A DNA stretch of 64,000 nucleotides from an uncultured Actinomycetes bacterium (GTDB taxonomy: Bacteria; Actinomycetota; Acidimicrobiia; Acidimicrobiales; CADCTF01), in contig CAVVPZ010000006.1 of assembly GCA_963750255.1 (NCBI GenBank), forward strand, positions 346,776 to 410,775, given 5' to 3'. A program made the translations under genes and the position numbers. Positions 1 through 51,377 of the stretch are shown piece by piece (the first letter of the stretch is position 1; every line of letters starts with the position of its first letter). Under the pieces are notes generated by a model. That model did no database searches, was not told the origin of the DNA, and was given only the letters and a program-made list of their open reading frames with translations.

Positions 1-109
1 GAGACGCGCTCGTATCCGAGTCCTTCGAGCAGAGCCCGCAGATCGGCCATCGCCACCCGTTTGGCCTTGCCCACGTTGATGCCCCGGAGCAGGGCCACAT
101 ACATCGCCA
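1..109 (-). CDS. DUF1697-family protein, N-terminal fragment (gene runs off the window start)
   Basis: Minus-strand reading from ATG at 109 gives MAMYVALLRGINVGKAKRVAMADLRALLEGLGYERV. This is the LLRGINVGG-type N-terminus I associate with DUF1697. It is absent from the ORF track because no stop lies inside the window. Confidence 0.5.
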
Positions 110-130
110 TGCCCGTAGGCTTGCAGAACC

Positions 131-1114: not shown

Positions 1115-1115
1115 G

Positions 1116-2369: not shown

Positions 2370-2395
2370 GGCCCCGCGTCGGGCAGGATGCGCAC

Positions 2396-2947
2396 ATGAG
2401 CGGGTACCGCAAGATCGGATTTTTGGCCGACACGCACTCCAACAAGCCCGACGGCAGTGACCTGCCCGATGCGGTGCTGGCAGCGTTCAAAGGTGTCGAC
2501 CTGATCGTCCACCTCGGCGATGTGGGTCGCAAGGGGATCCTCGATCGACTCGGCGAGGTCGCACCCGTATGGGTGCCCTTTGGCGACGACAAGGGTTACG
2601 TGCCGCACCTGTCGCGCGACGACGATCCGATCAAGGTCATCGAAGGAGCCAAGGGGACGCAGGTCGGCCTCGTGTTCAACCTCACCAAGCCCGACAAGAA
2701 GATCGGCGTCGACGGCACCTCGATCACCTACGACGACGGAGCGTTGCCGGCGCTGCTCCAGCGGCGCTTCAAACAGCCCGTCGACGTCGTCGCCTTCGGC
2801 GGCACGCACGTCGCCCACGCCGAAGATCGAGACGGCGTGTTGTTCGTCAACCCCGGCAGCCCCACCCTGCCCTCCGACGAAGCCGCCTCGGTCGCCGTCG
2901 TCGACCTGACGAGCGCCAAGCCCAAGGCCAAGCTCATCCGCCTCTGA
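2396..2947 (+). CDS. metallophosphoesterase (YfcE/MJ0936-like)
   Basis: 183 aa with IGFLADTHSN, LIVHLGDVG, FGGTHV and FVNPGS metal-ligand motifs. Confidence 0.8.
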   Translation: MSGYRKIGFLADTHSNKPDGSDLPDAVLAAFKGVDLIVHLGDVGRKGILDRLGEVAPVWVPFGDDKGYVPHLSRDDDPIKVIEGAKGTQVGLVFNLTKPDKKIGVDGTSITYDDGALPALLQRRFKQPVDVVAFGGTHVAHAEDRDGVLFVNPGSPTLPSDEAASVAVVDLTSAKPKAKLIRL

Positions 2948-2973
2948 CGCCCACCGCCGCCGTCCCCATCCGA

Positions 2974-3087
2974 CCCCACACCCGTTGGTGTGGCCGTTCC
3001 GGTCGTTCCAACCCGTTGGTGTGGCCATTGCGGCCGCCGTTTCGGCCACGACAACGGGATGGAGCAGCCGTTTCGGCCACACCAACG
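2974..3087. repeat. nested-palindrome intergenic repeat, copy A
   Basis: 13-mer CGTTGGTGTGGCC at 2983-2995 and 3014-3026. Its reverse complement lies at 3044-3056 (2 mismatches) and 3075-3087 (perfect). About 90% identical over about 112 nt to 6060-6172. Confidence 0.85.
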
Positions 3088-3105
3088 CAGCGCATGGACA
3101 GGTGC

Positions 3106-3123
3106 TATCGTGATATCACGATA
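3106..3123. promoter_or_regulatory. perfect 18-bp palindrome TATCGTGATATCACGATA, probable operator of the RHH gene
   Basis: AT-rich perfect inverted repeat 40 nt upstream of the GTG start at 3163. An RBS-like GGAGGGAG lies at 3147-3154. Confidence 0.55.
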
Positions 3124-3162
3124 ACTGGCTGAGGCGAAGCCCGGCCGGAGGGAGATGCAAAC

Positions 3163-3390
3163 GTGGCCAAGACCAAGAACGTGCTCTTGCGACTCGATCC
3201 GGATCTGGCGGCCCAACTGCAGGCGATCGCCGACGTGGAGGAGCGCCCGATGTCCGAGGTGGTGCGCGAAGCCATCAGGTCGCTCGTCGAAGCCCGCCGT
3301 CGCGACGAGGACTTCCAACGCCGTCTTCGCGACAGCGCTCGCCAACACGGGCGAACGATTCGGGCCCTCAAGGCAGCCGAAGATGGCTGA
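3163..3390 (+). CDS. ribbon-helix-helix (CopG/Arc-like) DNA-binding protein, antitoxin-like
   Basis: 75 aa. KNVLLRLDPDLAAQLQAIADVEERPMSEVVREAIRSLV is a classic RHH beta-strand plus two-helix pattern. Confidence 0.75.
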   Translation: MAKTKNVLLRLDPDLAAQLQAIADVEERPMSEVVREAIRSLVEARRRDEDFQRRLRDSARQHGRTIRALKAAEDG

Positions 3391-4057
3391 ACGGGCTCAT
3401 ATCGACGAAGCGACTCTGTTGTGGGCGGCAGCCGTCGTCGGTCGGGTCGATCCGGTCGCGGCCGCGAACGGGGTCGATGTCGACGCCCTTGTTCGGGTGG
3501 TGACGGCGGCCGACGACGCGCCGGACCCGCTCAGCACGGCAGCGGGAGTTCTGTTTAACCTGATCACCTCACGCCCGTTCCCGTCATCCAACGCGGCCAT
3601 CGGCTGGCTGGCAGCGACCGAGTTGCTGGCCAGGGTCGGCTGCCGTGTGGTCGTGTCGAGCGAGACTGTCGTGAGCTTGTGCGATGCGGTTCGCGACGGC
3701 TGCCGAACCGAGGACCAGGTGGCCGCATCGTTGCGATCGTGGATGGTGGTCGCCGGGACGGCGTGCCCGGTCTGCGGGCGGAGGGTTTACGCCAACGCCT
3801 CCGGTGCCCGGCGGACGAGTATGCCGGGCTCAGCGAGATTCGAGCTCACGGCTCGATGCGCCTTCGAACATCGAGTGCACGACAAGCTCGGCCGCGCGAT
3901 CGCCCGCCCTTTCGAACCATCGCCCGAGTCCCGTCAGCCCGTCTTGGCTCGGGGGGCCTGTGGCTCGCTCCTCATCGCCGGCCCGGACGGCGCGGGCGTG
4001 GGTGGTCAGCCCGTGTTCGTTCGACCCGACGACGCTCCGCGTCGCCGAGGTGATTGA
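3383..4057 (+). CDS. Fic/Doc-like protein with degenerate active-site motif (toxin-like partner of the RHH protein)
   Basis: ATG at 3383 overlaps the RHH stop (ATGGCTGA). FNLITSRPFPSSNAAIGWLAATELL aligns with the Doc motif HPFxDGNKRtA, but H, D, G, K and R are replaced. The C-terminal part carries CPVCG...C..H. Confidence 0.4.
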   Translation: MAERAHIDEATLLWAAAVVGRVDPVAAANGVDVDALVRVVTAADDAPDPLSTAAGVLFNLITSRPFPSSNAAIGWLAATELLARVGCRVVVSSETVVSLCDAVRDGCRTEDQVAASLRSWMVVAGTACPVCGRRVYANASGARRTSMPGSARFELTARCAFEHRVHDKLGRAIARPFEPSPESRQPVLARGACGSLLIAGPDGAGVGGQPVFVRPDDAPRRRGD

Positions 4058-4260
4058 CGTGCGGCCCGGTGATCTCGTCGGTCGCTGGGATCGATTGCTC
4101 GAACGGTCGACGACGGCCGGTTACCTCGCCCGTGGGGCGTTTGTCGTCGGCGACGACGGCCGTGTCGACGTTCTTGCGCTCGAGAGCCACGTTCGTGCCG
4201 CCAGCCGAGACATCGAGGCGATGCGGCACCCCCATCTCGTCGGCGCGTCGGCGGGCGGTC

Positions 4261-5194
4261 ATGGCTGAGACGGTCCTGCGGGTGCGCGGCGTGTCGCACT
4301 CGTTCGGGGAGGTGCGGGCGCTCCGGGGAGTGAACCTCGAGGTCCGAGCGGGGGAAGTGGTGGCATTGCTCGGACCGAACGGCGCAGGCAAGACCACGTT
4401 GGTTCGAATCGTGTCGACGCTCATCCACGCCGACGAAGGCCAAGTCTCCGTCGCCGGGACCGACGTCGCCTCCGAACCGTCCATTGCCCGGAGCCACCTC
4501 GGCTTGGCCGGGCAGTTCGCCTCGATGGACGAGGTGTTGACCGGTCGCGAAAACCTTCGGCTGATCGGCCGTCTCTATGGCATCGCGGCTGTCGAATGCC
4601 ACCGCCGGGTCGACGCGTTGCTCGCGTCACTCGACCTCGCCAGCGCCGCTGATCGCCGCGTCGCCACCTACTCGGGTGGCATGCGCCGCCGTCTCGACCT
4701 CGGCGCAACGCTGATCGCGGAACCGTCCCTGTTGCTCCTCGACGAACCGACGACCGGCCTCGACCCGGCCGCTCGACTCGAGATCTGGGATGTGATCGAG
4801 GAACTGGCCGCACGAGGTGCAGCGATTCTGCTCACGAGCCAGAACCTCGAGGAGGTGGAACGTCTCGCTGACCGGGTTGTCGTACTCGACGGCGAGGTCG
4901 TGGCCGAGGGGCACCCGCAAGAACTGCAGCGCCGCTTCGGAGGACAGGTGGTCGAGGTTGGGGTGGATGGCGACGATGCCCTCGACGCGGCGGCACGGGT
5001 TCTTTCCGCCTCGGGGCTCTCGGTGCGAGTCGAGCCCGCTCGTCGGCGCGTCACCGCCCCGACCGGAGGCTCTCTGGCGGCGGCTGTGGACGCGGCGAGC
5101 GAGTTGATCGCCGCTGACGTTGCGCCGAGCTTGTTCGCGCTAAAGGAGCCCCAGTCTGGAGGAAGCGTTTCTGACGATCACTGGCAAGACCACG
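4261..5194 (+). pseudogene. ABC transporter ATP-binding protein (DrrA/ABC-2 type); frame broken near its 3' end
   Basis: Walker A GPNGAGKTT, signature YSGGMRRRL, Walker B LLLLDEPTTGLD. The expected C-terminus PSLEEAFLTITGK is in the +1 frame after the C4 run at 5149-5152. The as-given frame has no stop until 6600. Confidence 0.85.
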
Positions 5195-6052
5195 GTGCAA
5201 TCGAAGGACGACGCCGGTCGGACTCGACAAGAGGCGCTGCATGCCTTGAGCGGCTGGGGGCTCGCCGACGCAGAGCGACCGGTCCTCCGCCGGTCGTTTT
5301 CGCGGGACGTCGCCGTCATGGTCGGTCGGGACGTGCGACGACTGCGGCGCTCGCCGCAGACGTTGTTCTTCGCGTCGGTTCAACCGGTGTTGTTCGTACT
5401 CGGTCTGACCGCCGTGTTCGGCACGCTGGTCGAGTCCGTTCTCGGCCAGCGCTACATCCAATTCCTCCTCCCGGGGGCGTTGGTCATGCAGGTCGCACTG
5501 GCGGCCGGAACCACCGGGGTCGGTTTGGCCTCAGATCTACAGGACGGGATCATCGACCGATTCCGGAGCCTGCCGATGTCGCCGCTCGCGGTGCTGATTG
5601 GGCGGACCACCACCGACTTGATCCGCAACGTGGCTGCGATTGCCGTGATGGTTGCCGCCGGTTTCGTACTCGGGTTCGAGCCCGGCGGCGGGTATCTCAG
5701 AAGTGCGATGGCGGTCGCGCTCGCTCTGACTTTCGGATATGCCGCCATCTGGGTGTTTGCCGCCGTCGGCCTGGCCGTCAAGGATCCGCAAGCCGCCACA
5801 TTTCTCGGCTTCGCCCCGGTCCTGCTCTTCGTCTATCTGTCGAGCGCGTGGGTTCCGATCGACACGATGAGTGCGGCGGTGCGCGGTTTCGCTCGCCACC
5901 AGCCCCTCAACGTCACCATCGAGGCGGTGCGGGGACTGGCCAACGGGACAAGCGCCACGGGTTCGATCCTTCAATCCCTGGCGTGGTCGGGCGCACTCAT
6001 CGTCGCCTTCGCATGGATCTCGTCGCGCCAGTTCCGACGGGCCACGTCCTAG
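5195..6052 (+). CDS. ABC-2 type transporter permease
   Basis: 285 aa, six predicted hydrophobic spans, RRLRRSPQTLFFASVQPVLFVLG N-terminal pattern typical of ABC-2 permeases. The start is uncertain because the frame stays open back to 5144. Confidence 0.8.
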   Translation: MQSKDDAGRTRQEALHALSGWGLADAERPVLRRSFSRDVAVMVGRDVRRLRRSPQTLFFASVQPVLFVLGLTAVFGTLVESVLGQRYIQFLLPGALVMQVALAAGTTGVGLASDLQDGIIDRFRSLPMSPLAVLIGRTTTDLIRNVAAIAVMVAAGFVLGFEPGGGYLRSAMAVALALTFGYAAIWVFAAVGLAVKDPQAATFLGFAPVLLFVYLSSAWVPIDTMSAAVRGFARHQPLNVTIEAVRGLANGTSATGSILQSLAWSGALIVAFAWISSRQFRRATS

Positions 6053-6059
6053 GTCCGTC

Positions 6060-6172
6060 CCCCACCACGTTGGTGTGGCCGTTCGGGTCGCTCCAACCCG
6101 TTGGTGTGGCCCTGGCGGCCGCCGTTTCGGCCACGACAACGAGATTGAGCAGCCTCTTCGGCCACGGCAACG
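6060..6172. repeat. nested-palindrome intergenic repeat, copy B
   Basis: CGTTGGTGTGGCC at 6068-6080 and 6099-6111. Inverted copies lie at 6129-6141 and 6160-6172. It sits between convergent genes. Confidence 0.85.
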
Positions 6173-6180
6173 GGGGAGGG

Positions 6181-7431
6181 CTATTCGGGGGTGACGCGGG
6201 CGATGAGGGCGACGGCCTTGTAGGCGGCCTCGGCCGGACCGAGTTCGTCGGGGCGCAACAGGTTGGCCATGATCCGCAGCACCCACTCCATGAGGGTGCG
6301 CGAGTGCATGCCAGTCGAGACGAGGGCACGCATGAGTTCGGGGCGACCGATGATTTTCACGAACGCCCGGGCCACCTTGTAATAGAGCCCGTAGGTGGCT
6401 TGGAGTTCGCGCTCGTAGCGCTGGAGGGCGAGGCCGTCGCCCGACAACAAAGCGTCGCTGAGCACCGACGCCGCAAGGCGTCCCGTCTCGTAGGCGTAGG
6501 CGATGCCTTCGCCATTGAACGGGTTGATGGCACCACCGGCGTCGCCGGTGACGAGGTAGGTCGGGCCGGCGTGGGGACCGACGGAGAACGCCATCGGTAG
6601 CCGGCCGCCGGTGGCCGGGCCGCACGACGTCTCGGGTGAGATCTCCCAGGACTTGGGGGCGTAGTCGACGAAGGCGTCCATCAGGTGGGAGGTGTTGACG
6701 GCCTTCCACTGGTTGAACGTCGAGAGCAGGCCGATGCCGACGTTGACCCGTCCGTCGCCCACGGGAAAGATCCATCCGTAGCCGGGCAGGACGTTGCCCG
6801 CCTTGTCGCGGATGTCGAGGTGGGACTCGATCCACGGCTCGTCGTGGCGAGGCGAGGTGTAGTACCCGCGAATGGCCATGCCCAGCGGGTAGTTGCGGTT
6901 GCGCGACGTGCCCAAGGCGCGGCCGAAGCGCGAGTTGGCGCCGTCGGCCACGACGACGAATCGAGCGCGGACTGCATCGATCCGGCCGCCCTCTGCCTTG
7001 CGCTTGATCGTCGCCCCCCGCACGAGGCCACCCTCGACCAAGGGAGCGATCGCCTCGGACTCCTGCCACAGGGTCGCGCCGGCCTTGACGGCTCGGTCGG
7101 CCACCATCTCGTCCAGATCGTGACGGGTTATCACGTAGCCGTAGTCAGGGAAGTCGGGGTGCGACGGCCACTCGAGTTCGAGCGTGCGGCCGAAGGCCAT
7201 CGACCGCAGGCCTGTGAAGCGATGCGCGTCGGCGGCCAGTCGGTCGCCGAGACCCATGTCTTCGAGTTGCTTGACCGAACGGGGCGTGAGGCCATCGCCG
7301 CAGGTCTTCTCGCGGGGGTAGCGCTTCTTCTCGACGAGCAACACGTCGTAGCCGGCCTCGGCCAGCCAATAGGCGCACGAAGCGCCGGAGGGCCCCCCGC
7401 CCACCACGAGGACGTCGGGGCGATCGCTCAT
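6181..7431 (-). CDS. geranylgeranyl reductase family FAD-dependent oxidoreductase (MenJ-like)
   Basis: 416 aa. DVLVVGGGPSGASCAYWLAEAGYDVLLVEKK dinucleotide fold, KTCGDGLTP, GDAGGAINPFNGEGI. Confidence 0.85.
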   Translation of the reverse strand: MSDRPDVLVVGGGPSGASCAYWLAEAGYDVLLVEKKRYPREKTCGDGLTPRSVKQLEDMGLGDRLAADAHRFTGLRSMAFGRTLELEWPSHPDFPDYGYVITRHDLDEMVADRAVKAGATLWQESEAIAPLVEGGLVRGATIKRKAEGGRIDAVRARFVVVADGANSRFGRALGTSRNRNYPLGMAIRGYYTSPRHDEPWIESHLDIRDKAGNVLPGYGWIFPVGDGRVNVGIGLLSTFNQWKAVNTSHLMDAFVDYAPKSWEISPETSCGPATGGRLPMAFSVGPHAGPTYLVTGDAGGAINPFNGEGIAYAYETGRLAASVLSDALLSGDGLALQRYERELQATYGLYYKVARAFVKIIGRPELMRALVSTGMHSRTLMEWVLRIMANLLRPDELGPAEAAYKAVALIARVTPE

Positions 7432-7445
7432 GACTCCAGTATCAG

Positions 7446-8129
7446 TCAGCTACCGGCAGATGCGGAATCGGCTCCCGCCTCAGGGGTCGCCGCCGGATCG
7501 CACTCAGGCGGGAGCGGGTCGGCCTTGCCGTAGTCGACTCGCTCGTGGCAGACGACGGCGATGACCTCGGCATCGGTGAGATCGGGGAAGGCGGGCATGC
7601 CGCCGGTGGCGATCTTGCCTGTGGCCCCGTAGGGCTGACCCTTGACCCCGGCCGAACCGCTGCGGACCCAGGCCACGTGGTCCTTGAAGTCGGGGAACGT
7701 CTTCAACACGCCGCCGAGGGCGGGACCGACGCCGCCGCCACCCGTCGGACCGTGGCAGCCCGAACAGCCCTGGGCCCGGTACACCGTCTGGCCGACCTGG
7801 ACGGGTCCCTCGACGGTCGAGGGTCGCTCGCCGAAGGCGCCGCCGTAGAGGACGGCCCACAACGGCAGCGCCACCAGCACCGGCATGGCCCACGCCGGGA
7901 CGCGCTGCTTGCGGGGAGGTGACGGCGGCGGCCCTGTGTACGGCGGCGGCACCGGTTCGCGCGGCGGCTGAGCTCCGCCGCCGCCGGCGGCAGCCGGGGT
8001 GGCCGCGGCGGCCGATTCGACCGCGCTCGACGTGGCGGCGCCCGCGGGTGCCTCGGCCGCCTCGCCGGTCATGGCGGAGCGGCGCTCTTTGGCACGGCGG
8101 AGGAGATGTTCAGGTACCTCGGTCAACAC
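7446..8129 (-). CDS. membrane-anchored monohaem c-type cytochrome
   Basis: Single CSGCH haem site, GGMPAF Met-ligand region, one TM (VPAWAMPVLVALPLWAVLYGG) after a Pro/Ala-rich linker. I chose GTG 8129 (or TTG 8126) rather than the track start 8258, by analogy with the MTEIPEHLL start of the 10099 gene. Confidence 0.8.
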   Translation of the reverse strand: MLTEVPEHLLRRAKERRSAMTGEAAEAPAGAATSSAVESAAAATPAAAGGGGAQPPREPVPPPYTGPPPSPPRKQRVPAWAMPVLVALPLWAVLYGGAFGERPSTVEGPVQVGQTVYRAQGCSGCHGPTGGGGVGPALGGVLKTFPDFKDHVAWVRSGSAGVKGQPYGATGKIATGGMPAFPDLTDAEVIAVVCHERVDYGKADPLPPECDPAATPEAGADSASAGS

Positions 8130-8297
8130 ATGCTCCCGACAAACGGGCAGTAGGGACGGGCGAATCGTAGGCGCGGGTCCTCCTGCATCACCAAGACGGT
8201 GAGCCAGGCGTGCGGAATGGGAGTCGTGCGAGGCGCCGTGGTAGAACCGCGGACACACCCCGGGGCGTTCGACCGAAGTACGCCTCGCCCCGGTAGA

Positions 8298-8315
8298 ATG
8301 TGATTCCGTTCACGA
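8298..8315. promoter_or_regulatory. TGTGA-N6-TCAC inverted repeat (Rex/CRP-type operator candidate) overlapping a TAGAAT -10-like hexamer
   Basis: ATGTGATTCCGTTCACGA at 8298-8315 matches 11 of 14 specified positions of TTGTGAA-N4-TTCACAA. TAGAAT lies at 8294-8299. Location is the divergent intergenic region between the cytochrome c gene and the respiratory array. Confidence 0.4.
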
Positions 8316-8833
8316 GAGGCAGAGAAGGGCCAAGGTTCAACGACGTGGTTGCGTTTCTCATCTCGCTTGTCCTCAGCGGCGGCATGATCGCCGTGATCCT
8401 CCGTGTGGGCAAGAACCGCCCGGTCGGGACACCGCTCACCTGGGGTGAGGCGTTCGTCGCCGCCATTTGGGTGTTCACCCTGCTCTTCCTGCTCTACGGC
8501 GTCGTGCCCCACCAGTTCCTGGCCTGGGCCGACAACGAACTCGAGTGGCGCTCCGACAAGATCGGCATCCCTCTCGGCCCGCTTGGCGGCGTGCTCAACG
8601 GCACCCTCGGCATCAAGAAGGGTCTGCTCTTCCCCAACGGCGTGCCGCTGCCCAATGGCACCTTCATCCTCACGGCCCAGGTGCTGCGCGACATCCTCGC
8701 GGCCGGCATCTACATCGTGTTCCTCTTGGCCCAGATCAAGATGTGGCTCTGGTGGCAGAAGCGTGATCAGGTGAAGACGGATCAAGGCGAGCTGACCTCA
8801 CCGTATGGACGCCCCCTGGTGCGGGGAAGCTGA
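8300..8833 (+). CDS. hypothetical integral membrane protein (first gene of the respiratory array)
   Basis: 177-aa ORF with 3-4 hydrophobic spans. I recognise no family. The true start may be GTG 8345, because 8300 abuts the -10-like hexamer and the palindrome. Confidence 0.6.
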   Translation: MIPFTRGREGPRFNDVVAFLISLVLSGGMIAVILRVGKNRPVGTPLTWGEAFVAAIWVFTLLFLLYGVVPHQFLAWADNELEWRSDKIGIPLGPLGGVLNGTLGIKKGLLFPNGVPLPNGTFILTAQVLRDILAAGIYIVFLLAQIKMWLWWQKRDQVKTDQGELTSPYGRPLVRGS

Positions 8834-8845
8834 GGATGTGCGCTG

Positions 8846-9259
8846 ATGGCTAAGACCGACGCCAACCCCCCGCTCCCGAACTTCCCGGGCGACTACGTCC
8901 TTCAGGAGATCGGCCCCGACGACCTCTCGAAGTCGGTCAAGCCAAAGCAGTTCCTCCACATCGACCAGGCCGAGTGCATCATGTGCGAGGGCTGTGTCGA
9001 CATCTGCCCGTGGAAGTGCATCCACATGCTCGACGCGGGCACGGTGGCCGAGTCGACCAACACCGAACAACCCGGCGTCGACCCCGACGATCACGTGATC
9101 TTCGTGGTCGACGAGGACGTGTGCACGCGGTGCGGCCTCTGCGTCGACCGGTGCCCGACAGGCGTGATCATCATGGGCAAGGCCGGGGTGGCGCCCCGCG
9201 AAGGCGACGCCCACCAACGCGACACCAAGCACGGTTTCGCTTACGGCATGCGGTTCTAG
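8846..9259 (+). CDS. 2x[4Fe-4S] ferredoxin-like protein
   Basis: 137 aa with CIMCEGCVDICP and CTRCGLCVDRCP cluster motifs. Confidence 0.85.
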   Translation: MAKTDANPPLPNFPGDYVLQEIGPDDLSKSVKPKQFLHIDQAECIMCEGCVDICPWKCIHMLDAGTVAESTNTEQPGVDPDDHVIFVVDEDVCTRCGLCVDRCPTGVIIMGKAGVAPREGDAHQRDTKHGFAYGMRF

Positions 9260-9296
9260 GAAGGTAGCGAGATGGCTGTGACAACTGGAGGAACGC

Positions 9297-10082
9297 GTGG
9301 CTAAGCGCATGAGCCTGAAGGACCGGCTCCCCAAGGCTCCCAAGCCGGCCGACATGGTCGACTACGTCCAGGGAAGTCAGCTGTGGTCGTCGATCTTCCG
9401 GCCCGGGTCGATCTTCCGCAAGGGCTACACCGACAGCCCTCGGAACCGGTCCTACGTGGTCATGAACTCGGTGCTGTACCACCTGCACCCGGTCAAGGTG
9501 AAGCGCCACGCGGTCAAGGTGAGCTACACGCTGTGCCTGGGCGGACTTTCGTTCTTCCTCTTCATCATCCTGACGGTCACCGGCATCTTCTTGATGTTCT
9601 TCTACCGACCGACGGCGGCCCAGGCGTGGAACGACATCGAGACCCTGCAGACGTCGGTGACGTTCGGGCTGTTGGTGCGCAACATGCATCGATGGGGTGC
9701 CCATCTCATGGTGATCTCGGTGTTCCTGCACATGGCCCGCGTCTTCTACCACGGGGCCTACAAGCCGCCCCGAGAGTTCAACTGGGTGATCGGCATCATC
9801 TTGTTGACGCTCACCTTGCTGCTGTCCTTCACCGGTTACCTGCTCCCGTGGGACCAGTTGGCGCTGTGGGCTGTGACCGTCGGCACCAACATGATGGGCT
9901 ACACACCCGTCTTCGGTCAGCAGGTCAGATTCGTGTTGCTCGGCGGGGTGGAGATCGGCACCGACACCTTGTTGCGCTGGTACGTCCTCCACGTCCTCAT
10001 GTTCCCGTTCGTCATCGTCATCTTCATGGCCATCCATTTCTGGAGGGTCCGGAAGGACGGCGGCATCTCCGGGCCGCTGTAG
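9297..10082 (+). CDS. cytochrome b6-type (N-terminal four-helix) cytochrome b
   Basis: 261 aa. RNMHRWGAHLMVISVFLHMARVFYHGAYKPPREFNW and HVLMFPFVIVIFMAIH supply the two H-x13-H haem ligand pairs. The ORF ends right after helix D. Confidence 0.9.
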   Translation: MAKRMSLKDRLPKAPKPADMVDYVQGSQLWSSIFRPGSIFRKGYTDSPRNRSYVVMNSVLYHLHPVKVKRHAVKVSYTLCLGGLSFFLFIILTVTGIFLMFFYRPTAAQAWNDIETLQTSVTFGLLVRNMHRWGAHLMVISVFLHMARVFYHGAYKPPREFNWVIGIILLTLTLLLSFTGYLLPWDQLALWAVTVGTNMMGYTPVFGQQVRFVLLGGVEIGTDTLLRWYVLHVLMFPFVIVIFMAIHFWRVRKDGGISGPL

Positions 10083-10098
10083 GAAAGGTCGAACTCCG

Positions 10099-10830
10099 AT
10101 GACCGAGATCCCCGAACACCTCCTCAAGCGAGCGCAGGCCCGCAGGGCCGAGAAGGCCGCCGGCGGTGACGCCGCCCCGGCCGACGCCGGTGCCGGTGCG
10201 ACCGATGACGGCGACAAGATCCCGGCGCGCTTGCTCACCGGCGAAGCCGGCCCCGGTGGCGGCACGGCGACGGCCACCGTCGCTCGGCCCGCGGCCCCGA
10301 CGGCCACCGGTCCGGCCGGCACCGCCGCCGGTCACACGCAACGCCTTCTCACCGTCGTCAAGGCGGGTTCGATCCAAGACGTCAAGGCGGTGCCGACCGA
10401 CAAGGTCCACGTCTGGCCCCACCTCATCGTCGTCGAGTTCGTCTCGGCGTTGGCGATGACGTGCTTCTTGCTCGTCTTCTCGACCTTCGTCAACGCCCCG
10501 CTGTTGGGCATGGCCAACTTCAACCTCACGCCCAACCCGTCGAAGGCGCCGTGGTACTTCCTCGGCCTCCAGGAACTGCTCACCATGTTTCACCCCATGG
10601 TCGCCGGCGTGACCATTCCGGGTATGGGCCTGATCGTGCTCGGCGCTGCCGGTTACATCGACAAGAACCCGTCGAACAAGCCGGAGGATCGCAAGTTCAC
10701 CATTGCCATGATGACGGTCTTCCTCATGTTCTGGGCCACCCTCGTCATCATCGGATCCTTCTTCCGCGGCGAGGGCTTCAACTTCATCATGCCTTGGGTC
10801 CAGGGCGTCCACGAGATCTTCGACCTCTAA
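10099..10830 (+). CDS. cytochrome b C-terminal part / subunit IV (PetD-like) with a long N-terminal extension
   Basis: 243 aa. KAPWYFLGLQELL (PEWY-loop equivalent) and three TM spans follow a roughly 95-aa Ala/Gly/Pro-rich extension starting MTEIPEHLLKRAQARR. Confidence 0.85.
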   Translation: MTEIPEHLLKRAQARRAEKAAGGDAAPADAGAGATDDGDKIPARLLTGEAGPGGGTATATVARPAAPTATGPAGTAAGHTQRLLTVVKAGSIQDVKAVPTDKVHVWPHLIVVEFVSALAMTCFLLVFSTFVNAPLLGMANFNLTPNPSKAPWYFLGLQELLTMFHPMVAGVTIPGMGLIVLGAAGYIDKNPSNKPEDRKFTIAMMTVFLMFWATLVIIGSFFRGEGFNFIMPWVQGVHEIFDL

Positions 10831-10840
10831 AGAGAGACGA

Positions 10841-11695
10841 ATGACCACCACCACCATCCTCGGACTCGCCGCCGTCGTCCTCGTCGTGCTCGGCGGGCTG
10901 TTCGCCTTCGCAACCACGCGCGCACGCGACCGGGCCTCGGCCGTCGGAGCGCTGTCTCGCGAGACCCGTTCTCGCGACAAGGGCCGCACCCGCACCGCCG
11001 CCGGCACTGAAGAACCCGCAGCGACCGGCCGTGAGGTCGAGCGCTCCGCTGCGCTGGCCCGCACTGGCGGAGGCACGCTGGTCGAGACCAAGCCCGCACC
11101 GCCCGCCATCCCGCTGCCCGCCGATCCTGAGACCTACGGCGTCACCCGTCGCCAGTTCTTCAACCGAGGCATCACCGCCTTCTTCGCCCTCGGCCTGGCC
11201 GGCTTCGGCACGGCCACGATCGGCTTCCTCTGGCCCACCCTCAAGGGCGGTTTCGGCTCGAAGATCCGGGCCGGGAAACTCGACGACATCCTGCGCGACA
11301 TCGACGACAAGAAGGAACCCTTCTACGTTCCCGAGGGCCGCTTCTACATCAACCCCTTCCCCAAGGATGATCTCGACAAGGCGTCGAAGGCGTACGCCGG
11401 CGGTGTGCTCGAGGGCATGCAGGACGGCGTCGTGGCGCTGTATCAAAAGTGCGTCCACCTCGGTTGTCGCGTCCCGTGGTGCAAGTCGTCGCAGTGGTTC
11501 GAGTGTCCTTGCCACGGATCGCAGTACAACCGGGTCGGTGAGAAGAAGGGCGGTCCGGCTCCCCGTGGTCTGGATCGCTTCGCCGTCTCCGTCGATGGCG
11601 GCGTCGTCGTCGTCGACACCGGCGCGCTGAGCCAGGGCCCGCCCATCGGAACCAACACCACCGGTCAGGAAGCTGAGGGGCCGCACTGCGCATGA
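10841..11695 (+). CDS. Rieske [2Fe-2S] subunit (actinobacterial QcrA-like)
   Basis: CVHLGCRVPW and CPCHGSQYN boxes. An internal twin-arginine TRRQFFNRG is preceded by an extra N-terminal TM. Confidence 0.9.
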   Translation: MTTTTILGLAAVVLVVLGGLFAFATTRARDRASAVGALSRETRSRDKGRTRTAAGTEEPAATGREVERSAALARTGGGTLVETKPAPPAIPLPADPETYGVTRRQFFNRGITAFFALGLAGFGTATIGFLWPTLKGGFGSKIRAGKLDDILRDIDDKKEPFYVPEGRFYINPFPKDDLDKASKAYAGGVLEGMQDGVVALYQKCVHLGCRVPWCKSSQWFECPCHGSQYNRVGEKKGGPAPRGLDRFAVSVDGGVVVVDTGALSQGPPIGTNTTGQEAEGPHCA

Positions 11696-12730
11696 TCTCG
11701 CTCGCCCAACCCACGACCCTCGTCGTCGGCTCCGCCGTCGAGCGCGCCGGCTGGCTGCTCGGCGCCGTCACGATCATCGTGATGATCGCCTACTTCGTGG
11801 TGACGTTCCGCTACCGCGATCCCGACGAGGACCGCACCGCCGAGGCCGAACTCGCGCCCAACCGCAAGCCCTACCTCGATGACGAGGCCCTCGAAGGCCG
11901 CCGTCTCGAGCGTGCGCTCGGCTGGGCCCTCGTCCTGTTGATCGTCGCCGCCATTGGGCCGCTCGTCTACTGGCTCAACGAGCCCGGCCGGCAGGCCGGG
12001 GCCATCGCCGAGTTCGACAGCAAGGCTGTCGAGCGGGGACGGCAGCTCTTCCAGCCCACCGACTCACCCGAACACGGCGCCCACTTCGGTTGCGCGACCT
12101 GCCACGGTCCCCAGGGCCAGGGCGGCGTGACGAAATACACGATCACCGACTACCTCGGCACGACCCGTCAGGTCTCGTGGGCCGCTCCCGCGATCGACAC
12201 GGCACTGTTGAAGTTCTCGCCCGACGAGGTGCAAACCATCCTCACCTACGGCCGGGCCAACAGCCCGATGCCGGCCTGGGGCGTGGCCGGCGGCGGCCCG
12301 ATGAACGACCAACAGATCACCGACCTCGTCGCCTATCTCGACAGCATCAAGCTGACGCCCGCCGAGGCCCGCAAACGCACCATGGCGCGACGCCGAGCAG
12401 CAGGCGAAGACCGACGGCAAGTCGAGCGTCGACGGCGAGACGCTGTTCAAGACCAACTGCGCCCGTTGCCACACCAAGGGCTGGTCCTACGGCGAGCCGT
12501 CGATCATGGGCGGCGGCGCCTTCGGGCCGAATCTCACCGGCGGCGACACCCTGCGTCAGTTCCCCGACCGAGACACGATGGTCGACTTCATCACCAACGG
12601 CTCCGAGTACGCCAAGCCCTACGGCGTCCGCGGCGTCGGCGGCGACGAGGGCGGCGGCATGCCGGGCTTCGGCCAGGTGCTCACCGCCGAGCAGATCCAA
12701 GCCATCATCGACTACGAGCGAGGCCTCTAG
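11692..12730 (+). pseudogene. dihaem c-type cytochrome (QcrC-like), one frame break as assembled
   Basis: First haem site CATCHG is in the frame of 11692. The second site, NCARCHT, and the C-terminus (track ORF 12506..12730) are in the +1 frame. The switch lies between 12370 and 12385 (AAA run at 12373-12375). Confidence 0.85.
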
Positions 12731-13588
12731 ATGACCGCGCAGCTCCTCGCTGCACTTGCCTGGGACCCGCAGATCCGCGGCGCGTTGATCGTGGTGACCG
12801 CGTTCACGATCCTTCCTGGCAGCGTGTACCTCCTCCTCGCCACCAACACTGGCGCCAAGCTGGGATTCCTCCTCGCCGCCGCCGGGCTCACAGGCTGGAT
12901 GGCGGTCATGGGTTGGATCTGGGTGGCATACGGCATCGGCATCAAGGGCGACCCGCCCACGTGGCACGTCGAAGAGGTCGTCACGGGCAAGGTGGCCGAA
13001 AACGGCACCACCGATGAGGTGGCCACGTTTCCGGCCGGTTGGCGCAAGCTCAAGACAGGCGACGCCATCCTCGGCGACGCCACCGCATCGGCTGACAAGG
13101 TGCTCGCTCCGAGCACGAGCAGTGGCGGCCACGGCGGGAGCGAGGCCGCCGTTCCGGTGACGCCGGTCTACGACAGCCCGGCCGACTACGTGCAGGTCGG
13201 CGGCTACGCCAAGGGCGGGGAGAATTACTGGCTCCCCGGCGGTGGCTTGGCCAGCGAGACGAGCATCGGCAACCCGGGCACCAACGTGTTCTCGAAGTTG
13301 ATCGAACGGCTCAAGCGTGGCCCGTTCCACGCCCCGCACTACGCCGTCATTCAGGTGCAACCGACCCTCAAGCAACAAACGATCACCGGGGTTCCGCCCG
13401 CGCCGGCGCCGGATCCGACCAAGGCCGTGAGTTCGGTGGTCATGGTCCGTGACCACGGCGACCTCAGGTTCCCGTCGACGATGGTCGCCATCTCGATGTC
13501 CATCGTGTTCGGGCTGGTGGTCAATGCACTCCACCGCCGTGACCTCGAAATCATGCGCCAGCGCGCCAACGCGCCGGCCGCCGCCTGA
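12731..13588 (+). CDS. hypothetical membrane protein between the bc-type module and nuoA
   Basis: 285 aa. ATG abuts the preceding stop (TAGATG). Two N-terminal TMs and one C-terminal TM flank a soluble roughly 170-aa domain. I recognise no family. Confidence 0.6.
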   Translation: MTAQLLAALAWDPQIRGALIVVTAFTILPGSVYLLLATNTGAKLGFLLAAAGLTGWMAVMGWIWVAYGIGIKGDPPTWHVEEVVTGKVAENGTTDEVATFPAGWRKLKTGDAILGDATASADKVLAPSTSSGGHGGSEAAVPVTPVYDSPADYVQVGGYAKGGENYWLPGGGLASETSIGNPGTNVFSKLIERLKRGPFHAPHYAVIQVQPTLKQQTITGVPPAPAPDPTKAVSSVVMVRDHGDLRFPSTMVAISMSIVFGLVVNALHRRDLEIMRQRANAPAAA

Positions 13589-13603
13589 GCCGGAGGATTC
13601 GCC

Positions 13604-14083
13604 GTGGATCAGTATCTGCCGATCTTCACCATGCTGGTCCTGGCCATCCTGTTCTCGGGCCTGTCGTTCTTCGCCTCCGGACTCCTCGCGCCCAAGAAGG
13701 CGTCGGCGGCAAAGGAAGCGCCCTACGAGTGCGGCATCGTCCCGAGCCGCGAGCCCCCTCAGCGCTTCCCAGTGCGCTTCTACGTGGTGGCGATGCTCTT
13801 CATCATCTTCGACATCGAGATCATCTTCTTGTATCCGTGGGCGGTGAGTTTCGGTGCCCTCGGGACCTATGGGCTCGTGGCCATGGTCGTCTTCGCCGCC
13901 ATCGTTTTCATCTCGCTTCTGTACGAGATCGCCATGGGGGGCCTCGAGTGGGGGTCGGTCAACCGACTGCTCGCTCCCGACGTCGACGGTGAGCTCACGG
14001 TTCGCACCTCGACATCGACGATCCGTCGTGTGGCCAAGCAATCGCCGGTCGAGGCGCCCGTCGAGCAGGGAGCAGCGGCCTGA
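13604..14083 (+). CDS. nuoA: NADH-quinone oxidoreductase subunit A
   Basis: [27 protein letters not shown]. Has a C-terminal tail of about 45 aa. Confidence 0.93.
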
Positions 14084-14646
14084 TGCCGGGAATCGAAGAT
14101 CTCTCGCACAACTTCCTCACGGGGCGACTCGAAGATGTCGTCAAGTGGGCCCGCCGCAACAGCATGTGGCCAGCCACGTTCGGGTTGGCGTGCTGCGCCA
14201 TCGAGATGATGGCCACTGGCGCGGCCAACTACGACATCAGCCGCTTCGGCATGGAGGTCTTCCGGGCGTCGCCCCGCCAGGCCGACCTGATGATCGTCGC
14301 CGGACGGGTCAGCCAGAAGATGGCCCCGGTTCTCCGTCAGGTCTACGACCAGATGATGGAGCCCAAGTGGGTCCTGTCGATGGGTGTGTGCGCATCGAGC
14401 GGGGGCATGTTCCAGAACTACGCCATCGTCCAAGGGGTCGATCAGATCGTGCCCGTCGACGTGTATGCGCCTGGCTGCCCGCCCAACCCCGAGACGCTGC
14501 TCCACGCCATCTTGACCCTGCACGAGCAGGTCCGCACCGGCGACATCACCCGCCGTCGTGAAGAGACTGGCGCCGGTGCCCAGCTGCACGTCGAGGCCAA
14601 GACCCCGCCGCGGTCGACGTCGACCCCCGTCATCCTGAGCCGCTGA
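14083..14646 (+). CDS. nuoB: NADH-quinone oxidoreductase subunit B
   Basis: [24 protein letters not shown] (N2 cluster cysteines). ATG overlaps the nuoA stop. Confidence 0.95.
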
Positions 14647-16570: not shown

Positions 16571-17162
16571 ATGGCCCGCTTGACGAAGGACAACGAAGCC
16601 CGCGCCCGGCACACGATGTCGCTGTATCCGCAGGTCCGCTCGGCGCTGATTCCCATGCTCCACCTCGTGCAGGAGCAGGACGGCTACCTCACGCGGGACG
16701 GCATGGTTCACGTGGCCGAGCTCCTCGACCTGACTCCCGCCGAGGTGTACGGCACCGCCAGCTTCTACGACATGTTCTTCTCCCATCCGGTGGGCAAGTA
16801 CCTCGTCTCGGTGTGCACCAACATCGCCTGCCTCCTCAACGGCGGCCAGCGAAGTGCTCGAACACGCCGAGGATGCGCTCGGCGTCCAAGCCGGCGGCAC
16901 GACCGAGGACGGCGAGTTCACGCTCGAAGAGGTCGAGTGCATCGCCTTTTGCGGCAACGCTCCGTGCCTGGCGGTGAACTGGCGGTTCTTCGGCGACGTC
17001 ACCAACGACTTCTTCGATCGCTCGTCGACGACCTCGAGTCGGGTCGGCTGGCGGAATCGGTTCCGAGCCACGGGACGCTCCCTGAGCCGCGTGCGGCGAG
17101 TTCCGAGCCTCGTCAGCGCAGACGCCGACCGACCCGACGACACGAGCGGGGAGCGCAAGTAG
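16571..17162 (+). pseudogene. nuoE: NADH-quinone oxidoreductase subunit E, about 3 frame breaks as assembled
   Basis: LIPMLHLVQEQDGYL and VCTNIACLLNGG are in one frame. EVLEHAEDALGV...ECIAFCGNAPCLAVN is in a second frame. LVDDLESGRLAESVPSHGTL returns to the first, then SRVRR...stop at 17162 returns to the second. Switches lie near 16848, 17018 and 17080. Confidence 0.85.
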
Positions 17163-18491
17163 TGCCCATCACCGACGTCGACAAGATCGTCACCCGACGG
17201 ATCGGCATCCCCGAGAGTTGGACGCTGCGTAGCTACCTCGAAAACGGGGGATACGACGGGTTGCGGAAGGCGCTCGAGATCGGTCCGGAGCAAGTGCAGG
17301 CCGAGGTCGATACCGCCAACCTCCTCGGTCGCGGCGGCGCGGGTTTCGAAGCCGGGAAGAAGTGGTCGTTGCTGCGCGACGCCACCCGCAGTATCTCGTC
17401 ATCAATGGCGACGAGAGCGAGCCGTCCACATTCAAAGATCACATGCTCCTCGAGAACGACCCGCACCAGATCATCGAGGGCACGATCATCACTGCGTTAC
17501 GCCATCCGCGCATCGCAGGCATTCATCTACGTGCGTGGCGAGTTCGCCCTCGGCATCGAGCGCATGATGAGCGCAGTCAACGAGGCGTACGAGCACGGGG
17601 CGCTCGGCAGCGAACATCTTCGGTTCCGGGTTCGACCTCGACCTCGTGATCCACCCGGGCGCCGGGGCGTACATCTGTCGGTGAGGAGACTGCGCTGCTC
17701 GAAAGTCTCGAGGGCAAGCGTGGGTTCCCGCGGATCAAGCCCCCCTACTTCCCCGCCGTATCGGCCTCTACGGCGCTCCGACCGTCGTCAACAACGTCGA
17801 GACGATGTCGAACATGCCATGGATCGTCCGCAACGGCGGCGCCGCGTTCGCAGCGCTCGGCGCGGGCCGCACGCACCGGTACCCGAATCTTCGCGGTTTC
17901 CGGCCACGTCAACAAGCCGGGCAACTACGAGGTCGAGATGGTCAAGACCACCTTTCGCGACATCATCTACGACCCCAAGTCCGGTGCCGGCATCCGCGGC
18001 GGCGAGAGTTGAAGGCGTTCATCCCTGGCGGCGCGCTCCGCACTGGTTCGGGCCGCGAGCAACTCGACATGCCGCTCGGGAGAACAAGGTCGGGGAGCGA
18101 GGGCGGCTCGAGGAGGGGGTCGGGATCGGTGATCGTGCCATGGACGACACGACGTGCATGGTGCGGGCCGTCGTGGCGCCTCGTCCGGTTCTTCGCCCGG
18201 GAATCCTGCGGGCAAGTGCACCCGTGTCGGGAAGGCACTCGGTGGCTCGACAAGATCATGCACCGCATCGAGTCGGGGGACGGCCGGATGGAGGATCTCG
18301 ACCTGCTCCTACGGACGTCTGCGACAACATCGCCCCGGCGTGCAATGGCCGTCGAAGTGGCCGCCGAACATGACCACATCTGCCCGTTGGGGCCGTCGAT
18401 CCCGCCTCCGATCGTCTCGGCGCTCCGCATGTTCCGCGACGAGTTCCTGACCCACAATCAAGGACGGAGCCTGAGCCCGTCGGATGCCTGA
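17162..18491 (+). pseudogene. nuoF: NADH-quinone oxidoreductase subunit F, about 19 frame breaks as assembled
   Basis: GTG 17162 overlaps the nuoE stop (TAGTG). Conserved blocks are scattered over all three frames: [147 protein letters not shown]. Confidence 0.85.
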
Positions 18492-46868: not shown

Positions 46869-46870
46869 CC

Positions 46871-47362: not shown

Positions 47363-47367
47363 CGGCC

Positions 47368-47676: not shown

Positions 47677-47687
47677 TCGGCCACCAC

Positions 47688-49829: not shown

Positions 49830-49846
49830 GGGAGCAGATCCAAACC

Positions 49847-51373: not shown

Positions 51374-51377
51374 CCCC

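Follow-up and report, generated by a model that had tools for sequence, protein, structure and literature searches.

A dicluster ferredoxin gene conserved in the operon of a split Rieske/cytochrome b complex in two lineages of Actinomycetota

Introduction

Whether electrons can enter or leave Rieske/cytochrome b complexes at the haem bn/cn pair on their cytoplasmic (n) side is a long-open question. It underlies the debate on ferredoxin-dependent cyclic flow through the cytochrome b6f complex as well as the proposals of reverse or NAD(P)-reducing operation made for APWY-type and anammox complexes. The question is raised anew by a locus in a 64,000-nucleotide stretch of DNA, hereafter the window, from an uncultured Actinomycetes bacterium of the order Acidimicrobiales (assembly GCA_963750255.1, contig CAVVPZ010000006.1, positions 346,776 to 410,775). 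In this locus a gene for a 2x[4Fe-4S] ferredoxin stands directly before genes for a split cytochrome b6 and subunit IV, a Rieske protein and a dihaem cytochrome c. An earlier annotation made from the letters of the window (the sequence-only reading) described these five genes as a hybrid of actinobacterial and Bacillota types of bc complex. What is a ferredoxin gene doing in such an operon?

The APWY clade of split cytochromes b crosses phyla and was described in 2014 by Kao & Hunte (PMC4122944). These authors reported split pairs in Rubrobacteridae and in one strain of Acidimicrobidae (Ilumatobacter), with five actinobacterial pairs, assigned the split actinobacterial pairs to either the PEWY-cytochrome c or the APWY clade, and noted that no member of the APWY clade had been characterised. 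Subfamily G of Dibrova et al. is likewise taxonomically mixed (PMC5600118), and in anammox bacteria the bc-type complexes include an NAD(P) oxidoreductase that contains a chain of [4Fe-4S] clusters (PMC5600118, PMC12954380). The clade, the split in deep-branching Actinobacteria and the concept of bc-type complexes with a redox module on the n side are therefore already published. Our literature search found no account of a bc operon with a ferredoxin gene in actinobacteria. As far as the literature shows, the new elements are a stand-alone dicluster ferredoxin fixed in the operon of two deep aerobic lineages of Actinomycetota, the kinship of this ferredoxin with a domain of the anammox-type reductases, and two further conserved membrane proteins encoded alongside.

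A conserved unit of seven genes

The window contains a run of co-oriented, nearly abutting open reading frames (ORFs) on the + strand between positions 8300 and 13588, whose products were assigned by searches with Pfam and NCBIfam models. The sequence-only reading was right about the tight spacing of five genes, but it overlooked the membrane-protein genes that flank them: the conserved unit has seven genes, with the following coordinates and products (TM, transmembrane segment).

8345-8833, + strand: small 3-TM membrane protein of 162 aa, from a conserved MVAF start; the longest ORF begins at 8300
8846-9259, + strand: 2x[4Fe-4S] ferredoxin of 137 aa (Pfam Fer4, E 1.5e-12)
9297-10082, + strand, stop codon at 10080-10082: split cytochrome b6 of 261 aa with 4 TM (PF00033, Cytochrome_B, E 3e-46)
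10099-10830, + strand: subunit IV-like protein of 243 aa with 3 TM (PF00032, Cytochrom_B_C, E 6e-6; KAPWYFLGLQELL)
10841-11695, + strand: Rieske [2Fe-2S] protein of 284 aa (Pfam Rieske, E 3e-8)
11692-12730, + strand: membrane-anchored dihaem cytochrome c of ~344 aa once repaired, with 2 TM, CATCH and CARCH motifs and Cytochrom_C matches in both halves
12731-13588, + strand: 3-TM membrane protein of 285 aa, whose start abuts the cytochrome c stop

The gene of the small 3-TM protein is separated from the ferredoxin gene by 12 nt. The gaps that follow measure 37 nt (ferredoxin to b6), 16 nt (b6 to subunit IV), 10 nt (subunit IV to Rieske), -4 nt (Rieske to cytochrome c) and 0 nt (cytochrome c to the 285-aa protein), and nuoA begins 15 nt past the gene of the 285-aa protein. 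The ORFs of the ferredoxin, b6, subunit IV and the Rieske protein are intact in the window. All motifs quoted by the sequence-only reading (CIMCEGCVDICP, CTRCGLCVDRCP, KAPWYFLGLQELL, TRRQFF, CATCH and CARCH) are present, and its calls of a 2x[4Fe-4S] ferredoxin and of a separate subunit IV-like protein with an ORF of its own agree with the model matches. A promoter and terminator scan of positions 7400-14200 gave nothing above background and is uninformative on co-transcription.

The ferredoxin gene is linked to the b6 gene in two lineages

Using the ferredoxin alignment as query and one genome per species, we found relatives of the ferredoxin in at least 589 species genomes of Actinomycetota. 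Synteny was studied in the best 80 of these genomes, all of which belong to Acidimicrobiia and which include the cultured Aquihabitans sp. G128 and Salinilacustrithrix flava. The full block, in the order small 3-TM protein, ferredoxin, b6, subunit IV, Rieske, cytochrome c and 285-aa protein, is carried by 77 of the 80. A metagenome scan with distant ferredoxins only (33-44% identical to that of the window) yielded 80 loci of a second, high-GC lineage of Actinomycetota (lineage B). Here the ferredoxin gene is followed by the b6 gene in 77 of the 77 loci with room downstream, and then by genes for subunit IV, the Rieske protein, a cytochrome c that is mostly monohaem, and a protein related to that of 285 aa. 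In a reverse test, where loci were chosen through their b6 matches, the ferredoxin gene was found directly upstream in five of five loci, including one 3.3-Mb genome and abundant marine types. The expectation of the sequence-only reading that the ferredoxin gene is syntenic with petB-like genes in relatives is thus borne out in all three sets.

The neighbours outside the block vary. The nuo genes lie downstream in most Acidimicrobiia and upstream on the opposite strand in one subclade; in lineage B the neighbours are ResB/CcsA/DsbD, caa3-type oxidase and Rex genes. Even the cytochrome c switches from dihaem to monohaem between the lineages while the ferredoxin-b6 link stays. The link between ferredoxin and b6 is therefore the invariant part of the neighbourhood.

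Apparent fusions of ferredoxin and b6 were also considered as 'Rosetta stone' evidence. Three of them (P0124, P0127 and P0210) are frameshift read-throughs, and the fusions were not relied on.

The ferredoxin resembles a domain of anammox-type reductases

The ferredoxin has two canonical CxxCxxCxxxCP motifs, starting at C44 and C93. These motifs (C44-C54 and C93-C103) are kept in 155 of 157 orthologues. No signal peptide, twin-arginine translocation (Tat) motif or TM segment is found in its sequence, and for this reason the protein should be cytoplasmic. It is acidic, with a net charge of -10. Two segments outside the cluster motifs are conserved in both lineages: an N-terminal extension (DY..E.D..L...VKPK), in which Y17, L27, V31 and K32 are invariant, and an insert of ~38 residues between the two motifs. 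In addition, the sequence C54-P-W-K-C58 (9005-9019) contains an extra invariant cysteine, Cys58, four residues past the last ligand of the first motif. This cysteine occupies a place usually held by alanine (CPxxAI).

The median identity across Acidimicrobiia loci is 86% for b6, 69% for the ferredoxin, 62% for subunit IV, 56% for the Rieske protein, 42% for cytochrome c and 34-40% for the two extra membrane proteins. The ferredoxin thus ranks second in conservation within the block, in a comparison that is somewhat biased by the ranking of loci by ferredoxin similarity.

The family is compact: an exhaustive scan of 1.84 billion representatives gave 27 clusters at E ≤ 1e-30. Matches outside the family include proteins of ~600 aa (E ~1e-11), which according to Pfam combine Fer4_20 and Pyr_redox_2 with a C-terminal dicluster domain. 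The ferredoxin is 40-41% identical to this C-terminal domain over 81-89 aa (pairwise BLASTP E 2e-19 and 5e-19). The alignment spans the long insert and the CPxxC cysteine, which also occurs in the C-terminal dicluster domains of reductases P0373, P0377, P0384, P0388 and P0390. At four of four loci the reductase genes themselves lie in Rieske/cytochrome b clusters, either beside the Rieske gene (L170, L172 and L173) or beside b6 and subunit IV (L171), and a cytochrome b is seen in three of the four.

L170: reductase, Rieske, fused KAPWY cytochrome b, multihaem cytochrome c, cbb3 oxidase
L171: b6 ending in ...DGGISGPL, 5-TM KAPWY subunit IV, reductase, multihaem cytochrome c
L172: reductase, Rieske
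L173: reductase, Rieske, cytochrome b, multihaem cytochrome c

Gene clusters of this make-up are known from the anammox complexes, and a 2025 study has modelled a reductase of this kind in the complexes of Kuenenia. The AlphaFold 3 models place it on the n side, with its iron-sulfur chain within 15-20 Å of haem cN or of a new interface haem, and four Fe-S clusters run from haem bN/cN to FAD (PMC12954380). The proposed new b haem has one His ligand from each cytochrome b monomer, and Arg511 and Arg550 of the reductase stand at its propionates (PMC12954380). Judging by the homologues, these two arginines appear to be located within the C-terminal dicluster domain or immediately ahead of it. Given the similarity to this domain and the modelled n-side site of the Kuenenia subunit, the ferredoxin looks like a stand-alone counterpart of the membrane-proximal dicluster domain of the reductase, without its flavin and NAD(P) part.

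Cytochrome b6 and subunit IV point to the APWY clade

Over its full length b6 aligns with cyanobacterial PetB, its best match in the PDB (E 6e-48). The sequence-only reading correctly saw a four-helix b6 and the H-x13-H pair of helix B (HRW-x11-H), but it assigned the same spacing to helix D, which has H-x14-H, a signature of the b6 type. Both bis-His pairs are kept in at least 121 of 130 b6 orthologues. The haem-cn motif C80-L-G-G, which aligns with Cys35 of PetB, is present in 129 of the 130, and this CxGG motif predicts a covalent haem cn at Cys80. The protein ends in ...RKDGGISGPL, as in PetB; the same ...DGGISGPL terminus is seen in more than 120 orthologues, in which subunit IV likewise has its own gene downstream. 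The stop codon that divides b6 from subunit IV is therefore not an assembly error, and by the comparison of orthologues the split is genuine.

On the n side b6 has an N-terminal extension of ~45 aa beyond PetB, as seen from the positions of the haem-cn cysteines (Cys80 vs Cys35). Residues 1-79 carry a net charge of +11. The extension is basic and near-invariant in both lineages (W.SIFRPGSI.R.GY.D..R.R....MN.VLYHLHPVK) and contains a [YFW]HLHP[VT]K motif, represented in the window by LYHLHPV (9468-9488, b6 residues 58-64). In 126 of 130 orthologues, from both lineages, the first His of this YHLHP motif precedes the haem-cn Cys by 19 residues, and this His is also found in the fused KAPWY cytochrome b of L170 (LLLHVMPVK). 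By analogy, it may be the counterpart of a ligand of the interface haem proposed for Kuenenia, for which His43 and His62 (the latter of Kustd1481) are the suggested ligands.

Subunit IV has the Qo motif KAPWY, an APWY variant, which is present in 113 of 115 orthologues. Its layout comprises an N-terminal MTEIPEHLLKRA peptide and a linker of ~80 aa rich in Ala, Gly and Pro. Among the NCBIfam models, b6 scores 307.6 bits with ExtP (cut-off 290), 213.5 bits with cytochrome b6 and 119.5 bits with QcrB_actin. The APWY Qo motif on a split cytochrome b, the invariant CLGG and the best NCBIfam model, ExtP, which is a Geobacter member of the APWY clade, suggest that the complex belongs to this clade, and it fits subfamily G of Dibrova et al. 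(PMC5600118).

The N-terminus of subunit IV (10099-10140, + strand) is shared with a monohaem cytochrome c encoded divergently from the block (~8126-8085, - strand): both begin with M-T-E-[IV]-P-E-H-L-[LR]-[KR]-R-[AS]. In each protein the peptide, which includes EVPEHLLRRA in the monohaem cytochrome c, is followed by a low-complexity linker and a TM helix. Peptides of this type occur at these two sites only in the window and recur at both genes across the Acidimicrobiia loci (L001-L082); subunit IV of lineage B has a different conserved N-terminus. The shared peptide might serve in docking or targeting on the cytoplasmic side.

The Rieske protein, cytochrome c and two further membrane proteins

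The Rieske protein consists of an N-terminal TM, a low-complexity loop, an internal Tat-like motif (TRRQFFNRG), a second TM and the cluster domain, so that the internal RRQFF and the extra N-terminal TM noticed by the sequence-only reading are both there. The cluster domain (CVHLGC...CPCHGSQY) has the disulfide Cys and the CxH...CxxH boxes, and the Ser and Tyr of CPCHGSQY are of the type of high-potential centres. The protein had been called actinobacterial-type, which does not agree with its scores of 62.6 bits with PetC vs 25.8 bits with QcrA_actin. Its closest solved structures are 9rk4 and 9rk3 (Kuste4569 and Kustd1480 of Kuenenia), followed by PetC of b6f, and actinobacterial QcrA is not among the 60 matches listed of 70 in the PDB at E ≤ 0.001. 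The midpoint potentials of Kuste4569 and Kustd1480 are +303 and +335 mV (PMC12954380). The core motifs of the ferredoxin, b6, subunit IV and the Rieske protein (two CxxCxxCxxxCP, CLGG, H-x13-H/H-x14-H, KAPWY and CPCHGS) are invariant in ~130 orthologues.

Both haem motifs reported for cytochrome c exist, CATCH at residue 134 and CARCH in the second haem domain, but in the window they do not share one ORF. The frame that starts at 11692 turns into nonsense past ...LTPAEARKRTMA, and the second haem domain (DAEQQAKTDGKSSVDGETLFKTNCARCH...) is in the frame of 12392-12730. This +1 frameshift, overlooked before, lies at ~12386-12389 and consists of one extra nucleotide in GCGCGAC. The orthologues are intact, with lengths of 353-422 aa (359 aa in L001), and 63 of 72 orthologous ORFs from Acidimicrobiia contain both haem motifs. 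Frameshifts are also found in nuoE (16846-16851) and at several places in nuoF (17168-18473), whose orthologues in relatives are intact as well. The frameshift in the cytochrome c gene is therefore probably an error of an indel-prone assembly, and it is less likely that cytochrome c, nuoE and nuoF are decaying genes or that we see a recent pseudogene. Programmed frameshifting was ruled out by the orthologues, which are single intact ORFs. The sole PDB matches of the dihaem cytochrome c are weak ones to actinobacterial QcrC (E 7e-6 to 8e-5), and its scores with the QcrC_actin model are 17.7-22.8 bits against a cut-off of 200. Altogether, the proteins do not make up a hybrid of actinobacterial and Bacillota solutions: b6, subunit IV and the Rieske protein appear to be of the APWY/subfamily G type, and the likeness of cytochrome c to QcrC is weak.

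The small 3-TM protein is encoded directly upstream of the ferredoxin in 75 loci, with overlapping stop and start codons in L165 and L168. It has the conserved motifs TWGEA, YGVVPHQWL, WQKRG and YGRPL, and a protein of 117-126 aa with ~18% identity takes its position in lineage B. It has no match in Pfam or NCBIfam, and a PDB profile search gave chance matches only. The 285-aa protein begins with two TM and continues with a large extracytoplasmic domain; its third TM is C-terminal and precedes HRRD. Its gene lies downstream of the cytochrome c gene in both lineages, and it too has no Pfam or NCBIfam match. Both proteins are candidate supernumerary subunits; the small 3-TM protein is alternatively a candidate assembly factor.

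A subunit on the n side or a helper protein

Taken as a whole, the locus is best explained as encoding an APWY-clade b6c-type menaquinol:cytochrome c oxidoreductase, with the ferredoxin probably a stoichiometric supernumerary subunit on the n side. The seven genes would give rise to a complex made of a split b6 with its haem-cn site, subunit IV, a high-potential-type Rieske protein, a membrane-anchored dihaem cytochrome c and two lineage-specific membrane proteins. We infer from gene order, motifs and similarity that the ferredoxin would bind to the cytoplasmic face of the b6/subunit IV dimer, docked on the basic N-terminal extension of b6; the acidic charge of the ferredoxin, complementary to that of this extension, which is basic in both lineages, speaks for such an arrangement. 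The two [4Fe-4S] clusters of the ferredoxin would then link the haem bn/cn pair to the cytoplasm, possibly by way of an additional haem at the interface that is bound by the invariant His of YHLHP. The direction that we prefer is entry: electrons would pass from a low-potential cytoplasmic donor through the clusters to haem cn and on to menaquinone at the Qn site, while a normal Q cycle would run forward alongside and supply cytochrome c and an aa3-type oxidase. Entry is favoured because it is thermodynamically downhill for ordinary [4Fe-4S] potentials. Exit, with a quinol-driven bifurcation reducing a cytoplasmic acceptor, is possible.

The presence of complex I and a MenJ-like reductase in the window, and of caa3 oxidase and cytochrome c maturation genes in lineage B, suggests that the cell uses the complex as its normal menaquinol:cytochrome c reductase, running forward. 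The reverse operation suggested for APWY complexes (PMC4122944) sits uneasily with such a role. An additional cytoplasmic Fe-S module for entry or exit of electrons in an uncharacterised variant, as the sequence-only reading proposed, is still the best current reading, but it has a precedent in the anammox complexes.

Several observations weigh against a ferredoxin subunit that conducts electrons. Typical potentials of 2x[4Fe-4S] proteins are around -400 mV, far below those of the b-haems, so that exit is strongly uphill; exit of the kind proposed for NAD(P)H production in anammox bacteria would require either cluster potentials well above the usual or an uphill step. The conserved block contains no gene for a cytoplasmic partner in an entry route. 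Synteny by itself cannot tell a subunit from an assembly factor, and three of the 80 genomes have a 137-aa ferredoxin copy (~69% identical) apart from any b6 gene, which means that the protein can exist outside the operon. Of the four apparent ferredoxin-b6 fusions a single one, P0173, keeps the reading frame, and this fusion is a singleton. The AlphaFold2 model of this fusion, built on an alignment of fusions, b6 and ferredoxins, is unusable (pLDDT 48.8, pTM 0.30), as is that of the ferredoxin alone with 104 sequences (pLDDT 43.5). The kinship with the reductases must also be read with care: repetitive polyferredoxin-like proteins score as high as or above the reductases in the ferredoxin scan, and an identity of 40% between dicluster domains is partly due to the cysteine motifs.

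Could the ferredoxin be a maturation factor that is absent from the mature complex? It would then provide reductant on the cytoplasmic side for binding haem cn covalently to Cys80 of b6, or for a different step of assembly, possibly aided by the small 3-TM protein in a role like that of the chloroplast CCB system. In plastids, dedicated n-side factors are needed to attach haem ci. The haem-cn cysteine is invariant wherever the ferredoxin is present, the fused cytochrome b of L170, which has no CxGG, goes without a stand-alone ferredoxin, two uncharacterised membrane proteins co-occur with the ferredoxin, and the unlinked copies in three of 80 genomes also fit a maturation role. We nevertheless consider this role unlikely: in Bacillota and cyanobacteria haem cn is attached with no need of such a ferredoxin, and the small 3-TM protein, having no Pfam match, shows no detectable similarity to CCB families. 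Furthermore, the ferredoxin is more conserved than the Rieske protein, subunit IV and cytochrome c, which is unusual for an assembly factor, and its closest relatives are domains of subunits, namely of the Rieske/cytochrome b-linked NAD(P) oxidoreductases. A soluble carrier that is merely co-transcribed with the bc genes and serves another enzyme is very unlikely in our view. One candidate client would be the MenJ-like enzyme of the geranylgeranyl reductase (GGR) family, which could saturate the menaquinone side chain and whose gene is near the cluster in 53-54 Acidimicrobiia loci; some archaeal GGRs use a dedicated ferredoxin, and the unlinked copies agree with a soluble protein. However, the GGR gene is on the other strand, with two genes between it and the ferredoxin gene, and is absent from the neighbourhoods of lineage B, where the ferredoxin-b6 link persists, while the conserved N-terminal extension and the very high conservation of the ferredoxin suggest a fixed docking partner.

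The evidence from synteny and conservation applies equally to a ferredoxin that is bound to the complex without being a through-route. Its clusters would then sense redox state or oxygen, or buffer electrons, and in this way tune the Qn site or limit over-reduction. Such a function would fit the lack of a flavin/NAD(P) module or an obvious cytoplasmic partner gene conserved alongside the ferredoxin, and in aerobic hosts exposed [4Fe-4S] clusters would be natural O2 sensors. We regard it as quite unlikely, since nothing in the sequence is specific to sensing, and two clusters arranged as a wire, together with the homology to a domain of an electron-transfer chain (PMC12954380), favour throughput. 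That the split of b6 and subunit IV or the ferredoxin ORF is an artefact of an error-prone assembly has next to no probability. The frameshifts in the cytochrome c, nuoE and nuoF genes of the window would allow for it, but more than 160 independent loci, among them complete genomes of cultured strains, agree in gene order, lengths and termini, and this refutes it.

The n-side subunit thus remains our preferred explanation, and a more far-reaching form of it is doubtful but worth stating: a bc-type enzyme into which a port for ferredoxin is built at the haem bn/cn pair, and which would act either as a ferredoxin:menaquinone reductase on a Q-cycle enzyme or as a quinol-driven bifurcating machine. 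The former would be a hard-wired version of the debated route of cyclic electron flow from ferredoxin to b6f. The latter would make low-potential reductant in aerobic actinobacteria, maybe by way of an interface haem at YHLHP like the one put forward on the basis of the anammox models. In either case the operon would represent a minimal, genetically fixed form of an n-side iron-sulfur port. The operon occurs in at least 589 species genomes, and its hosts range from abundant groups of the sea and the soil to the cultured aerobes Aquihabitans and Salinilacustrithrix. They should be much easier to grow and to purify proteins from than anammox bacteria, which makes the question of a port directly testable.

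Comparison with known complexes

The anammox complexes of subfamily G (Kuste4569-4574 and Kustd1480-1485) share with the system described here the b6-like cytochrome b, the APWY subunit IV, the haem-cn motif, the high-potential-type Rieske protein and an n-side iron-sulfur module encoded in the operon. That module is a large reductase with Fer4_20, FAD and NAD(P) domains in anammox bacteria and a 137-aa dicluster ferredoxin alone in our case; no Pyr_redox gene was found within the conserved block in the loci of both lineages that we examined. Subunit IV has three TM here and five in the anammox type, and the partners on the p side are dihaem or monohaem class I cytochromes c instead of hexa- or octahaem proteins. 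The hosts differ as well: here they are aerobic Actinomycetota, in which complex I or caa3 oxidase genes, not anammox genes, are the neighbours. With the APWY clade in general the complex shares the KAPWY Qo motif, the b6/subunit IV split and CxGG, though the context of the latter is TLCLGG, compared with the WCMGG typical of the clade.

The high score with ExtP invites comparison with the ExtO/ExtP/ExtQ proteins of Geobacter, and the NCBI annotation pipeline PGAP names the b6 of Acidimicrobiia (P0136, P0189) 'selenite/tellurite reduction operon b-type cytochrome ExtP'. The b6 protein exceeds the ExtP cut-off (307.6 vs 290 bits), but the ExtQ model is missed (52.3 vs 150 bits). Compared with the Geobacter cluster ExtHIJKLMNOPQS (PMC5877670), the neighbourhood contains no multihaem ExtKL/M/N/S, porin ExtI or rhodanese ExtH; conversely, three features found here are foreign to the Geobacter cluster: the ferredoxin, both additional membrane proteins and cytochromes c of class I. 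Because ExtQ is missed and the multihaem and porin genes are absent, the ExtP label on the b6 of Acidimicrobiia is over-propagated and misleading. Our results correct this automatic annotation, which is attached to many Acidimicrobiia b6 proteins.

The b6f complex and the Bacillota b6c complex (QcrABC) have the same four-helix b6 with its His pairs, haem-cn Cys and ...GISGPL end, and a separate 3-TM subunit IV; the Rieske domain described here is PetC-like, as in b6f. They differ in the Qo motif, which is PEWY or PDWY in b6f/b6c and APWY here, and in being without the ~45-aa n-side extension of b6. Conversely, our complex has neither cytochrome f nor a fusion of subunit IV with cytochrome c. 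The ferredoxin gene is inside the operon here, whereas the n-side association of ferredoxin or FNR with b6f is debated and transient. Actinobacterial QcrCAB occurs in the same phylum and has in common with our complex a membrane-anchored dihaem cytochrome c and a Rieske protein with an extra N-terminal TM and an internal Tat-like motif. However, the cytochrome b described here is split and b6-like (119.5 bits with QcrB_actin vs a cut-off of 500), and the Qo motif is APWY instead of PDWY. The Rieske protein has two TM, in contrast to three in QcrA, and its cluster domain is PetC- or anammox-like (25.8 bits with QcrA_actin vs a cut-off of 275).

Neighbouring genes and other loci

Outside the seven-gene unit, the following genes of the window and ferredoxin copies at other loci bear on the setting of the complex.

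7446-8126, - strand: membrane-anchored monohaem cytochrome c (CSGCH), divergent from the block; the real start is probably near 8126
6181-7431, - strand: MenJ-like flavoprotein of the GGR family, with menaquinone reductase MenJ as its best match
42651-52901, + strand: second complex I-like operon (nuoA, B, C, D ... L, M, N), whose products are homologues with 33-47% identity to those of the first set
1056-2369, + strand: class-III aminotransferase, taken to be HemL-like by its place after haem-biosynthesis genes in L001
~7001-7411 in each of L042, L047 and L051, uncultured Actinomycetes genomes: unlinked ferredoxin copies

The divergent monohaem cytochrome c is found in most Acidimicrobiia loci, is absent from lineage B, and is a probable electron acceptor or shuttle. 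The GGR protein scores 312 bits with the MenJ model, below the equivalog cut-off of 700; the location of its gene next to the cluster is consistent with a partly saturated menaquinone as the quinone. In the second complex I-like operon ~2.3 kb separate nuoD from nuoL, which leaves no room for nuoE, F and G. This is an 11-subunit-type enzyme, and its electron donor could be a ferredoxin.

The genes around the unlinked ferredoxin gene of L042, recognised by eye in the ORF translations, are those of ClpP and of ArsR-like, Fpg/Nei-like and UbiB-like proteins. In L163, a locus of lineage B (1-8407 and 13467-14150), the ferredoxin-bc operon is divergent both from the cytochrome c maturation genes DsbD/ResB/CcsA and from a caa3-type oxidase operon, with a COX2-cytochrome c fusion, COX1, COX3, COX4 and CtaG. 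A gene for a Rex-like redox-sensing regulator is found just downstream. In L001 (1-5655) the same region as in the window is preceded by genes with Pfam matches to GlutR, porphobilinogen deaminase, HEM4/TP_methylase, ALAD and Aminotran_3, which we read as hemA/C/D/B/L. With this haem biosynthesis operon before the block, haem synthesis, the bc complex and complex I are clustered in L001.

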